Assembly: GCA_963514005.1 (NCBI GenBank)
Contig: OY740787.1
Location: 64,232,001-64,296,000, forward strand
Length of the DNA stretch: 64,000 bases
Source: Raja brachyura
Taxonomy: Eukaryota
Direction: 5' to 3'
In this document: positions 19,037 through 47,352 of the stretch, piece after piece
Layout: every line of letters starts with the position of its first letter
Position numbering within the stretch: position 1 is the first letter of the stretch
Position numbers and translations under genes: made by a program
Notes under the pieces: model-generated
What the model was told of the DNA's origin: nothing
The model's input: only the letters and a program-made list of their open reading frames with translations
The model's database searches: none

Positions 19037-19104
19037 ATGAATCCCTCAGTGTCACCCACTGAAGATGATGAAGAAACACAGGCCAAAGCACTTAAAGGCA
19101 GAAA
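19037..19104 (+). CDS. DH-PH RhoGEF coding exon 1 (tentative ATG)
   Basis: [22 protein letters not shown] then aa|gtaagc. Corresponds to Kalirin EEEQKAKALRGR just before DH2. In-frame TAA upstream at 19007-19009. Confidence 0.75.
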
Positions 19105-44900: not shown

Positions 44901-47352
44901 TGGGTTATGAATGTATAACATAATTTATGGTCCTAAATTAAGCCAGTTGTCTTGTCCTGAACCTGCTTGGATTTTGTTCAAGCTGCAGTTAACCACACTC
45001 TTGGCTTGATGGAAAATAAATCTTGGAGATTTAAGAAGAATTATTCAATCATTACAGAATACCGTGTCTTTGGTTTCTTCTTGACTAGACCAAACAATTG
45101 CTCATCAAAGTGGTGTATTAAAGAACTAATGAAAATAATGCCATGTTTAACCAGTACCTTTAAGTTAGTAAAAGCACCTCCAAAAGTGTTAACAAATAAT
45201 AAATAAAAACACTGAGCCAATGTCAAATGCCCAGGTTAAGTTAGGTTTTAAATAGCAAATTAAAAGAAGAAAGGTTTTGGTTAAAGATTCCACAGTTTCA
45301 GGCCATGGCATCTAAAGACACCGCATCCAATAGTGTTTAAATTCAAATGATTCTAAATTCAAGGTCGCAAAATAGTCAAGATTGGAAGTGAGCATAAAAC
45401 GTTTTTGATCAAAGAAATTACATTTAAAAAAAGGCAAAGGAAGTGAGCATGGATCAAAATAAGATTGAGAATTTTTACATCAAAGCTTTTTGGAACTAAT
45501 ATTATTCAGCAAGCACAGGGATAATGGATGAATCAGACATGATACGTTAGGACAATGGATGACGACTAGATTCAGCAATGAATCTCACAAGGATGTAGAC
45601 GGGTTTTCTCTTCAGCTGGAGATGGCAAATGGAACCAAGAAAAATGCAATTATCAGCGAGTATATTACTCATGAGCTTCTGAATGAGAGAAAGCTATTGA
45701 ACCAGCTGAAAGTCATTTGGCCTTGGATATACGAAAACTTTCAATTTCACTGGAGCTTCTTGTTGCCATACTTAGTCAAATTCAGCCTTGCTGTCAAAAA
45801 CAATCACCCTCACCTCATTTCATCAACATGCCAATTTGGATCATAGCCGTAATAATGCCTGGACAGAACTGAACTGAGGATTAGAGAAAAGCTTATTGCT
45901 GAATAAATGGCACTTTGATAGCATGATTGGGAACTCCATGCTCTTGTGTTTTAATTGTGGAGACTGCAAATTCTCCTTCAAGATTCAAATAACACAACAC
46001 TGGGGAAACATGCCATAATCTGCAGGTGGAGTTTTATTGTCAAAGTTTAATAAAAGTGGGATGTGCCAGCAAAGAGCATTGTTAGCATTTGGAATGCACG
46101 ACCTGAATGACAGTTGGAAACAGAATCAGTCGAAACTTTTCAATAAAGAAATTGGACAAATCCTCAGAAAGGAGAACATTGTTCTGATATAGAGAAGTGC
46201 AATTAATTTGGGTGGTTGTTTTAAAAAGTTGACAGAATCAAAATAGGAAAATCTGTTTTATTGTGAACTGTAATATTCTAGGATTCTAGCTTTTACATCT
46301 TTTATTCAGTTATTTTATCTGATCCAATTCAGATGAATGCGCTAAACATTGAGAGCAATGTGAACAACGAACTTTGCAAATTTGCTCTGACCTCCACTGG
46401 ATCCACTGAGCGCTTGATCTTAGAGGCAACGAACAGAGAAATCTATGAAGCTTGGGTTTGTGATATCAACAAAGCACTTGACCTTCAAAATAATTTGTTG
46501 AATGGTATGTAGATGTTTTTTAACCTCAAACGACACCGCAACTCTCTTTAATCTGGTCAGGTACAAGTTGAAGAAAGGCGGGCTAAACATTGGATCTGTG
46601 ATACTTCCCCAATCCCTCTAACTGCACAAATTATCACTAAATTAATTACAACTTATGAATTATGTAAAACGTATTTCAAGACTGTAAACTAAAATTCTAT
46701 GTGATTAAATCAATAATTGGCTCTCTATCTAGGCTGTCAGCTACTCTGCTGCTCCCCCATCCCAAGTGGATGCCAAGACTTCCAATTAGATTGGCTTCAG
46801 GGCAATCACGGTAAAATATCAATATGTAAATTGTGGAGTGCGAACTCTACAGCATACAAGGAAAATCCAGATTTCCATCCAATTGTCTGCCCCCTCGAAA
46901 TGCACAAAATGTCACTGTCTAAATTAACAATTAAAATGTATGAAATATGTAATGCTTATTTCAAGACTGTAAAATAAGATTCTATGTGATTAAATCAATA
47001 ATTATTAGTCACAATCACATGCTGTAAAACTAATGGCTAAGGAGTATTCTGATAATTAGTATATGGCTGTTATGTTAGATTAAAAACATTAATATACCAA
47101 GCCAAGAAAGCAAAAATAAGTCACCAAGAAGGTTATTAGATTACTCTAAAATTTCAATATAAAGATATGTTATGATATGAACAGAACTGTATGAGTCAAC
47201 AATCAATGTTTGTTCTAATGATGACATAATGTTTTATATCTGACATTATAACATTATAACTTAATATGTTGATCTTTATTTCAGCATTGCAATCACCAGT
47301 CGAGTACCAGAGAAAATTGACTCCAAATCTTTTCAGCATAAAACCAAAATGA
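19037..47352 (+). CDS. Stand-alone Kalirin-GEF2-like DH-PH RhoGEF, ~347 aa, 11 coding exons (whole-gene span); probable partial tandem duplicate of KALRN
   Basis: Exons 19037-19104, 19983-20049, 21236-21339, 24398-24467, 36934-37020, 37308-37400, 38062-38112, 41705-41782, 43758-43943, 46333-46504, 47285-47352. All introns are GT-AG and phases are compatible, giving 1044 nt with no internal stop. The start codon is tentative. Confidence 0.85.
19310..19645 (-). mobile_element. HE1-type V-SINE
   Basis: Reverse complement of the HE1 consensus (cctacaaacctgtacgtctttggagtg..acagacagcacccgtagtcgggatcgaac..gcagcaactcta). Confidence 0.85.
19983..20049 (+). CDS. DH-PH RhoGEF exon 2 (DH conserved region 1)
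   Basis: ttttctcacag| (N)[22 protein letters not shown] |gtgaga. Confidence 0.92.
20080..20870 (-). mobile_element. Decayed Penelope-like element, 3' fragment
   Basis: Starts with the common gaaactgcagatgctgg..cagcatct terminus and continues into a purine-rich spacer and the decayed reverse complement of the GIY-YIG C-terminal coding region, similar to 56945-58110. Confidence 0.6.
21236..21339 (+). CDS. DH-PH RhoGEF exon 3
   Basis: tttcag| [34 protein letters not shown](T) |gtatgt. Confidence 0.95.
22426..22958. mobile_element. Palindromic Penelope-derived short element with a nested CR1 3' fragment (~22467-22818, +)
   Basis: Flanked by a 12-bp direct repeat ctagtctcttat (22414-22425 and 22959-22970). 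ORF 22491-22730 is a CR1 ORF2 C-terminus ([35 protein letters not shown]). Confidence 0.8.
23650..23915 (+). mobile_element. HE1-type V-SINE, diverged
   Basis: cagcaccagagacccgggtttgatcctgactac..gggttttct..ccacagtccaaagg..gggctgaaggacctgtttcc. Confidence 0.75.
24398..24467 (+). CDS. DH-PH RhoGEF exon 4
   Basis: tcctttgtag| [23 protein letters not shown] |gtgagt. Confidence 0.93.
24613..24838. mobile_element. MITE with ~33-bp terminal inverted repeats (possibly PIF/Harbinger type)
   Basis: ggcctgtcccacatgggcgtcatttgcgcgtca at the left and tgacgcgcaaatgacgcccaagtgggacaggcc at the right (1 mismatch). Confidence 0.8.
25843..30745 (+). mobile_element. DIRS1-type tyrosine-recombinase retrotransposon, structurally complete but frameshifted
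   Basis: gag-like ORF from 26060; RT ([30 protein letters not shown], 27679-28047); RNase H ([31 protein letters not shown]); methyltransferase-like region ([24 protein letters not shown]); tyrosine recombinase (29517-29921 and [13 protein letters not shown] near 30030-30116). Left end tacgtgaagaagccccgccaggcgcatgctcggcat is inverted at ~30635-30670. An internal complementary region at 30407-30517 pairs with both outer ends; both ends are TTTT. Confidence 0.95.
30746..31290 (+). repeat. 3' part of a GC-rich interspersed repeat interrupted by the DIRS element (5' part 25668-25846)
   Basis: Joining the DIRS flanks gives gatggagatgcaa-tttt-attccatatc, collinear with the uninterrupted copy at 58963-59605. 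Confidence 0.85.
31790..35650 (+). mobile_element. Decayed Ty3/Gypsy LTR retrotransposon (Mag/K02A2.6-like), internally deleted
   Basis: gag ([27 protein letters not shown] knuckle), protease DTGARVNV near 32287, RT N-terminus ([14 protein letters not shown]), RNase H end ([21 protein letters not shown]), integrase ([29 protein letters not shown]). Many stops and frameshifts; no LTR pair could be found. Confidence 0.88.
33270..34002 (-). mobile_element. CR1/HER1-type LINE 3' fragment nested in the Gypsy pol
   Basis: ORF 33524-34042 reads [62 protein letters not shown] and 33352-33591 reads [16 protein letters not shown]. The Gypsy frame resumes on either side. Confidence 0.92.
36345..36790 (-). 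mobile_element. Two HE1-type SINE fragments
   Basis: cacagacagcacccgaggtcaggatc.. and tcggcccaccgagtccgcgccgaccagc..gtgggaggaaac..gggagaacgtacaa. Confidence 0.75.
36934..37020 (+). CDS. DH-PH RhoGEF exon 5
   Basis: tttgcag| [29 protein letters not shown] |gtaagc. Confidence 0.95.
37308..37400 (+). CDS. DH-PH RhoGEF exon 6 (DH conserved region 3)
   Basis: ttattag| [31 protein letters not shown] |gtaagg. Confidence 0.95.
38062..38112 (+). CDS. DH-PH RhoGEF exon 7
   Basis: ttgttgcag| [17 protein letters not shown] |gtaaga; compare recalled Kalirin DFLRYSEKAGLECSDIE. Confidence 0.9.
38468..38745 (-). mobile_element. HE1-type V-SINE, diverged
   Basis: tttagtttagaaataca..gtgggaggaaaccgg..ggtcacagg.agaacgtacaaa..gcagcaact. 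Confidence 0.75.
39555..39845 (+). mobile_element. HE1-type V-SINE, diverged
   Basis: gggtggcacggtgg..ggttcgatt..ggagtttgcatgttctccc..gggccgaaggacctgttcccatgctgtatctc. Confidence 0.75.
40100..40932 (+). repeat. GC-rich interspersed repeat related to the 58963-59605 family
   Basis: Same layout: T-rich leader, gggggaaact, GC-rich body, ccttcc.tcacag..tgtggggatgtttt, cactgtgcc, and a (tgtatct)n tail. Confidence 0.6.
41705..41782 (+). CDS. DH-PH RhoGEF exon 8 (DH C-terminal helix)
   Basis: ttgttacag| [26 protein letters not shown] |gtaaag. Confidence 0.95.
41880..42130 (-). mobile_element. HE1-type V-SINE, internally deleted
   Basis: tttagtttagttta..gatacag..cctacaaacctgtacatctttggagtgtggga..taaggcagcaac..ccactgcgccac. 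Confidence 0.8.
42450..42790 (-). mobile_element. CR1-type LINE 3' fragment, decayed
   Basis: ggagcagaattaggccattcg..ccattcaatcatgg..gcagtgaattcca.. matches the reverse complement of the CR1 3' end. Confidence 0.7.
43758..43943 (+). CDS. DH-PH RhoGEF exon 9 (PH domain, N-half)
   Basis: tttccag| [62 protein letters not shown] |gtaaat. Confidence 0.95.
44415..44550 (+). mobile_element. Penelope-derived short element with a minimal hammerhead ribozyme motif (44419-44446)
   Basis: CTGAAGA-A-GGGTC-TC-GACCT-GAAA-CG-TC, with upstream ggt able to pair with downstream acc; standard terminus ..ccagcatctgcagttccttcctacac. Confidence 0.75.
46333..46504 (+). CDS. DH-PH RhoGEF exon 10 (PH domain, C-half)
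   Basis: aattcag| [57 protein letters not shown] g|gtatgt. Confidence 0.92.
47285..47352 (+). CDS. DH-PH RhoGEF exon 11 (terminal; Galphaq-binding helix motif, stop)
   Basis: ttatttcag| (A)[24 protein letters not shown]; compare the family motif ALQSPIEYQRK. Confidence 0.9.

Follow-up and report, generated by a model that had tools for sequence, protein, structure and literature searches.

What occupies the interval between KALRN and UMPS in the skate Raja brachyura, when in human KALRN is directly followed by UMPS? The stretch analysed here (the window) comprises 64,000 nucleotides of contig OY740787.1, positions 64,232,001 to 64,296,000, to which all coordinates below are relative. A first-pass annotation made from the sequence had placed in this interval an extra stand-alone gene, with a DH domain, a PH domain and a short tail, as a partial tandem duplicate of the second guanine nucleotide exchange factor (GEF) unit of Kalirin, GEF2. 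Its coordinates and counts hold: 11 exons of 51-186 nt on the + strand, at 19037-47352, are separated by introns that are GT..AG in ten out of ten cases and splice into a frame of 347 amino acids with a single terminal stop. The ATG lies 14.6 kb past the KALRN stop at 4434, the downstream neighbour is UMPS (ATG at 61648), and the Kalirin-like motifs named earlier (AKALKGR, IEEKGVP, SEYI, LSD.LIKP.QRITKY, MMNLGRL, SIK|MN) are present. We argue that these exons are a separate, intact gene built from the KALRN GEF2 exons, and we consider it fairly probable that its product is a cytosolic GEF, autoinhibited by its PH domain, that is recruited and activated by Gq and acts most likely on RhoA-type GTPases. 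The features of the locus are as follows.

3886..4434, + strand: KALRN last coding exon, kinase C-lobe and stop (Pkinase E 1e-23; 93% to catshark kalirin residues 1125-1306)
18961..18977, + strand: ancestral splice acceptor, retained (11/14 pyrimidines, CAG), from alignment to the KALRN acceptor and a frame test; its use is putative
19037..19104, + strand: exon 1 (coding), from the conserved internal Met (17/18 copy rows); N-terminal helix ahead of DH
19983..20049, + strand: exon 2, DH alpha1, conserved Glu33
21236..21339, + strand: exon 3, DH
24398..24467, + strand: exon 4, DH
36934..37020, + strand: exon 5, DH, Glu121 (= Trio Glu2069); 87 nt as in Kalirin, without the extra Trio/ARHGEF25 residue
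37308..37400, + strand: exon 6, DH alpha4-alpha5 loop and CR3; codons 140-142 (37329-37337) read E-T-F vs Kalirin Q-R-L
38062..38112, + strand: exon 7, DH
41705..41782, + strand: exon 8, DH alpha6 and alphaN linker (Asn194/Asp195, Met197, Arg201)
43758..43943, + strand: exon 9, first half of PH, including the beta3-beta4 loop
46333..46504, + strand: exon 10, second half of PH and start of the Gq-binding extension (Leu323 replaces Phe)
47285..47352, + strand: exon 11, ALxxPV Gq motif, short tail, stop
48471..48672, + strand: candidate poly(A) signals AATAAA at 48471, 48491 and 48667, from a pattern scan
61648..61783, + strand: UMPS exon 1 (best PDB match orotate phosphoribosyltransferase 2WNS, E 1e-8)

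KALRN has GEF2 exons of its own. Within the analysed flanks (120 kb upstream and 80 kb downstream of the window, in a genome of 2.7 Gb), all 11 were found in order between -68.5 and -38.7 kb, collinear with the copy, the paralogous exons lying 88 kb upstream; blastn located ten of them, and the last (exon 8) was recovered by tblastx, the output of which was otherwise mostly noise. The exons of a catshark kalirin (1306 aa) can each be followed along the skate sequence, beginning at -114874, passing GEF2, SH3, Ig, FN3 and kinase, and ending at 4431; the 11 that encode GEF2 are the only ones with a second match past the KALRN stop. The copy and KALRN agree in internal exon length in 9/9 cases and in intron phase in 10/10, their proteins are identical at 251 of 346 residues (72.5%), their nucleotide divergence is 22%, and their intron flanks show random-level identity (mean 0.30 over 20 windows). 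The mapping left no trace of other Kalirin domains beside the copy, so these domains were probably never copied. The first-pass annotation was thus right that spectrin, GEF1, SH3, Ig, FN3 and kinase domains are absent, but its word 'lost' does not stand, loss being indistinguishable here from never having been copied.

To place the copy among its relatives, 55 of ∼270 fetched proteins were used in two trees, a quick one of 57 rows (LG+C20) and a careful one of 28 rows (LG+G4), leaving out P0271 (an Ig/FN3 fragment outside GEF2), the exon-skipped P0020 and P0022, and the redundant P0005, P0013 and P0247. The copies form one clade (support 100 in the 57-row tree, 100/100 in the 28-row tree) nested within chondrichthyan Kalirin (98 and 100/98), and the clade splits into batoids and sharks, matching species relationships. 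That the gene is instead ARHGEF25, or an older paralogue from whole-genome duplication, might be read from its identical DH-PH-extension architecture and from the automatic names of its orthologues, 9 of 17 of which are 'ARHGEF25-like' and the other eight 'kalirin-like' (RefSeq/UniRef models). We regard this as extremely improbable, since approximately unbiased (AU) tests reject both a clade of the copy with ARHGEF25 (p 4.4e-6) and a position of the copy outside all Kalirins (p 0.013), and both exon 5 and the PH loop of the copy show indels of the Kalirin type. In the genome search TRIO lies on contig C2 and ARHGEF25 proper on contig C42, most of its exons having 81-94% identity with catshark ARHGEF25. 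ARHGEF25 identity is refuted by this second locus and by the tree tests, and the nine database names are wrong. Collinear paralogous exons upstream, the trees and AU tests, and the separate TRIO and ARHGEF25 loci together support the proposed origin by partial tandem duplication of Kalirin GEF2 exons.

The introns are full of repeats, which could point to an assembly artefact or a decaying pseudogene, but we give such an origin practically no credence. A divergence of 22% from KALRN with unalignable introns argues against an artefact, exons 10-11 are single-copy (no second genomic copy was found in the genome search), exons 5-11 are contained, with ∼1-2% difference, in DNA contigs from two other organisms (of the four sets of DNA-type contigs compared, X1 could stem from the source sample and does not count as independent), and orthologues are intact in 17 species, a cross-species conservation that refutes this explanation. 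Among the 40 rows listed out of 454, variants between 36800 and 38317 in one organism (X3) included a single exonic change in the 24 listed, and it was synonymous. Over 319 core codons the copy and KALRN differ by a dN of 0.147 and a dS of 0.90, and the resulting dN/dS of 0.16 (bootstrap 0.10-0.24, 300 resamples), together with the orthologues in 17 other species, supports the purifying selection that had been proposed for the copy. In simulations of neutral decay the open frame was kept in 0 of 3000 runs at 0.45 substitutions per site (half of dS) and in 1.4% at 0.1.

How widely is the gene distributed? Protein searches and cluster look-ups returned orthologue models in 17 other species, seven of them batoids (Rhinoraja, Leucoraja, Amblyraja, Hemitrygon, Hypanus and two Mobula) and ten of them sharks (Heterodontus, Pristiophorus, two Scyliorhinus, Mustelus, Rhincodon, Stegostoma, two Chiloscyllium and Hemiscyllium), and the skate protein is 95-96% identical to its Leucoraja and Amblyraja orthologues. 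The copy is therefore elasmobranch-wide as judged from these models and not a recent local duplicate; 'lineage-specific', as it had been called, is correct for all elasmobranchs and incorrect for this skate. Multiple transcript variants per gene are modelled in Amblyraja, Rhincodon, Stegostoma and S. canicula, and the 87-nt in-frame exon 5 (36934-37020, with Glu121) is skipped in isoform models of both S. canicula and Stegostoma (P0020, P0022). The variants and the shared skipping suggest RNA support for the models, and the DH domain of the skipped isoform is likely inactive.

Our literature searches found no paper on an elasmobranch kalirin GEF2 copy among the entries listed, although supplements or subscription papers may mention the gene. 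In rows 31-60 of the 74 chondrichthyan rows of Fort and Blangy 2017 (PMC5499878), a survey relying mainly on Callorhinchus here, that genus has a single KALRN and elasmobranch sequences are few, and Kalrn-2, Kalrn-3 and Arhgef25 are among the rows listed in a skate-genome supplement. The copy is thus modelled automatically in databases, often under misleading names, but is apparently undescribed.

The placement of the copy relative to Callorhinchus is equivocal (support 53/10; derived site patterns 6:5:3), which suggests that the duplication arose near the holocephalan-elasmobranch split. Its distribution makes the copy at least as old as the shark-skate split, dated to ∼286 million years (My) ago (PMC10115646), and at most ∼420 My old or slightly more (PMC6238376). 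The Callorhinchus Kalirin (P0153) shares three derived residues (136, 137 and 147) with the copy that shark and ray Kalirin lack, and all three of these sites are confined to exon 6; gene conversion, or incomplete sorting when the duplication took place, could account for the sharing.

How might so truncated a gene begin and end? The old KALRN acceptor is preserved at 18977, 59 nt ahead of the ATG vs 60 in KALRN, with a second AG 10 nt ahead of it. The start Met is shared by 17 of 18 copy rows, the remaining model being N-truncated, and only some sharks have the 20 codons ahead of it in frame. We infer that translation starts from an internal Kalirin Met and that the old acceptor joins a non-coding first exon to the coding part. 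At the other end, the last exon of the copy is read for 22 codons up to the stop (shark copies extend ∼25 residues beyond this), and the skate 3' untranslated region behind exon 11 aligns weakly to the remaining KALRN exon.

The retained acceptor also invites the reading that KALRN uses these exons as an alternative 3' end, reached by read-through splicing and yielding a kinase-less Kalirin. Strand and phases are the same, such that any KALRN GEF2 exon could splice in frame to the next copy exon, and in three shark models (P0009, P0013, P0015) the frame extends through the 5' part of exon 1. In this skate, however, neither acceptor ahead of the ATG keeps the frame when read in phase 0, as from the preceding KALRN exons, and both readings run into stops, which argues against fusion through exon 1, if not against chimeric splicing into exon 2 or later; moreover, exon 1 and its Met are conserved, the gene is modelled as a separate short gene in 17 species, and a read-through transcript would need to splice across ∼88 kb in which KALRN itself ends. 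We therefore hold the alternative 3' end to be improbable and prefer a gene with its own start.

A Cys-rich first exon of a Duet-type isoform lies inside KALRN at -114874 to -114788; it resembles the palmitoylated N-terminus of shark ARHGEF25 models and hints that ARHGEF25 itself may descend from a Trio/Kalirin ancestor, of which it would represent the Duet-like 3' half. No match to this Cys-rich exon was found between 4434 and 19037.

What could the product do? The Amblyraja orthologue (P0004, 95% identical) matches PF00621 (RhoGEF, 130 bits) and PF22697 (SOS1_NGEF_PH, 97 bits) above the Pfam cut-offs, exons 9 and 10 each match PF22697 alone, and the closest structures are TrioC 6D8Z, p63RhoGEF 2RGN (E 4e-122) and Kalirin DH2 8C7D, far above GEF1 entries. 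Catalytic residues are kept throughout, Glu33 in 17/17 rows with the residue and Gln153, Lys157, Asn194 and Asp195 in 18/18, as are Glu121, Met197, Arg201, Ala326, Leu327, Pro330 and Tyr333 in all 18 copies (the Trio equivalents Glu121=E2069, Asn194/Asp195=N2143/D2144 and Met197=M2146 were mapped by count on the 6D8Z alignment). The Gq motif ALxxP[I/V] retains its Ala, Leu and Pro in 18/18, followed by Ile in 14 and Val in four, including this copy. When P0004 was modelled with human GNAQ, the best control reached a score of 0.01 and the predicted complex one of 0.61, with interface residues 319-334, contacts agreeing at ≥76% and a partner pLDDT of 79 (51/78 solved and 2/108 mismatched pairs reach the score mark); a like complex being already solved (2RGN), the prediction shows likeness to it and not binding.

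Related proteins suggest how these residues may be used. PH2 lowers the activity of Trio DH2-alphaN 22-fold (PMC12309612), Gq binds PH2 of Trio and Kalirin (PMC12309612, PMC11630257), Kalirin GEF2 activates RhoA weakly, and more strongly without PH2 (PMC11630257), Gq binding depends on the Leu of ALXXPI (PMC7599897, PMC3722567), and GEFT, which is without the palmitoylated N-terminus, resides in the cytosol until Gq activation brings it to the membrane (PMC5105084). The scheme that we propose begins with tandem partial duplication of the 11 GEF2 exons near the holocephalan-elasmobranch split, after which a new promoter and a non-coding first exon splicing into the old KALRN acceptor would have allowed translation from the internal Met. 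Having no Cys-rich anchor, the product would be cytosolic and GEFT-like, its DH domain autoinhibited by the PH domain until activated G-alpha-q, bound through the ALxxP[I/V] extension, recruits the GEF and switches it on for exchange on RhoA-type GTPases. GEFT-like behaviour is suggested by the retention of catalytic and Gq-binding residues in 18/18, and the copy would likely be a further switch by which Gq-coupled receptors act on the actin skeleton.

Several observations weigh against this scheme. The promoter and first exon were not located, and there is no CpG island in 4001-20000. Adjacency to KALRN is only indirectly supported in other species: in 10/10 species with both, the longest contig given for the copy is that given for KALRN as well, an indirect form of synteny, and their accession numbers are ≤13 apart in six of the ten and hundreds or thousands apart in the other four. 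Copy models of Callorhinchus, Pristis and Narcine were not among the best 120 of 852 matches, nor were any from bony vertebrates, absences that concern this list and not genomes. Over 11 matched species the copy evolves faster than KALRN (DH 0.166 vs 0.062, PH 0.217 vs 0.028), including in the Gq extension (0.244 vs 0.000), where Phe323 is replaced by Leu in 8/8 batoids and Ile331 by Val in 4/4 skates. Finally, in the alpha4-alpha5 loop residue 141 is Thr in 12/18 copies, including this one, and Lys in 6/18, residue 140 is acidic in 17/18 and Phe142 is found in 18/18.

The last of these bears directly on substrate choice. Residues 140-142 of every copy differ from chondrichthyan Kalirin, and residue 141 is Arg or Lys in 39/39 other GEF2 rows (Kalirin, Trio, ARHGEF25 and invertebrate) vs Ala at its position in Rac/RhoG-type GEF1 motifs (22 rows). 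It aligns with a Lys of Dbs and presumably occupies the position of Lbc Arg2136. As reported in PMC4156082, that alpha4-alpha5 residue of Lbc reads RhoA Asp45/Glu54, and R2136G leaves 7.4% activity. By analogy with Lbc and Dbs, a basic side chain at residue 141 likely reads RhoA, such that Thr141 may entail a substrate shift, and its occurrence on two separate tree branches suggests repeated change.

A second explanation therefore keeps the same origin and Gq binding and proposes that the substrate has shifted or the activity weakened in skates and in carcharhiniform and orectolobiform sharks, leaving either a link from Gq to Cdc42, RhoG or Rac or a low-activity Gq buffer. We think it unlikely, if still worth serious attention: the match of residue 141 with Lbc Arg2136 is a presumed one, 6/18 copies retain Lys, and every other RhoA-side residue tested is kept. 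A bolder form, in which elasmobranchs re-invented a GEFT-like Gq effector from Kalirin, dropped the RhoA-reading basic residue at least twice and thereby rewired Gq to Cdc42, RhoG or Rac, appears to us more doubtful again; if true, the branches losing the basic residue would be the skates and the carcharhiniform and orectolobiform sharks, and a stand-alone GEF2 would connect Gq to a different Rho GTPase, a link undescribed for this subfamily. We retain the Gq-activated, RhoA-directed GEF as the preferred explanation, with RhoA as the substrate of this skate copy its weakest step, to which we lean by a narrow balance. The earlier description 'p63RhoGEF-like RhoA GEF' is accordingly apt for the stand-alone DH-PH with a Gq extension, and inapt in that the Cys-rich anchor is absent and the likely RhoA-reading residue is Thr.

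The known systems nearest to the copy are Kalirin GEF2, Trio GEF2 and ARHGEF25 (p63RhoGEF/GEFT). Kalirin GEF2 (KALRN DH2-PH2; Duet) is the direct parent, with the same 11 exons, lengths, phases and Kalirin-type indels, whereas the copy is a separate gene without Sec14, spectrin, GEF1, SH3, Ig, FN3, kinase and the Cys-rich Duet first exon, evolves ∼3-8 times faster and has an altered alpha4-alpha5 loop. Trio GEF2 (TrioC, 6D8Z) belongs to the same fold family, and its alphaN and Glu2069/Met2146/Asn2143/Asp2144 have kept equivalents in the copy, but it is part of a giant multidomain protein encoded on another contig, and the beta3-beta4 loop of the copy is Kalirin-type. With ARHGEF25 the copy has in common a stand-alone DH-PH and a Gq-binding C-terminal extension; it is not, however, an orthologue, is without the palmitoylated N-terminus of the p63RhoGEF580 form and has almost no C-terminal tail. 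GEFT is a closer functional match than p63RhoGEF, both it and the copy being without the Cys-rich anchor. Of 33 differing sites, two are shared only with ARHGEF25 and one only with Trio; with no excess of residues shared with ARHGEF25, the convergence seen in these alignments is in architecture only.

On the origin favoured here the copy would be a fourth Trio-family GEF2 gene in the shark and ray repertoire, and partial duplication would have produced the stand-alone Gq-to-Rho GEF architecture a second time, independently, in a form that has persisted for at least ∼286 My. With their natural variation (Arg/Lys/Thr at residue 141, Phe to Leu in the Gq motif), the 18 copies offer a panel for GTPase choice and for Gq control of Kalirin GEF2.

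Two further positions of the module show patterns of their own. Residue 260 (exon 9, 43758-43943) is Arg in chondrichthyan Kalirin (13/13) and batoid copies (8/8), and Gly in bony-vertebrate Kalirin, Trio and ARHGEF25; the equivalent Trio substitution G2211E doubles GEF2 activity (PMC12309612). Residue 35 (exon 2, 20017 region) is Ile or Val in all copies, Leu or Met in ARHGEF25 and Asp or Glu in Kalirin and Trio, so that both stand-alone genes share a hydrophobic change there.

Intron 4 is 12.5 kb long in the copy vs 2.7 kb in KALRN, an excess due to retroelement insertions. One, at 26057-30100 on the + strand, has a long first open reading frame (ORF), a reverse transcriptase (RVT_1, E 3e-14) and further ORFs, and is broken into several frames; three of its ORFs have no Pfam match, and by order and motifs it resembles an element of the DIRS type. 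Pieces of a Gypsy-like long terminal repeat retroelement with an integrase core (rve, E 3e-10) lie at 32358-35467 (+ strand), interrupted by a fragment similar to a long interspersed nuclear element (LINE) at 33524-34060 (− strand). Outside the gene, a LINE 3' end (60400-61089, − strand; zf-RVT E 1e-11) lies ∼0.6 kb upstream of the UMPS start, beside the CpG-rich UMPS promoter region.

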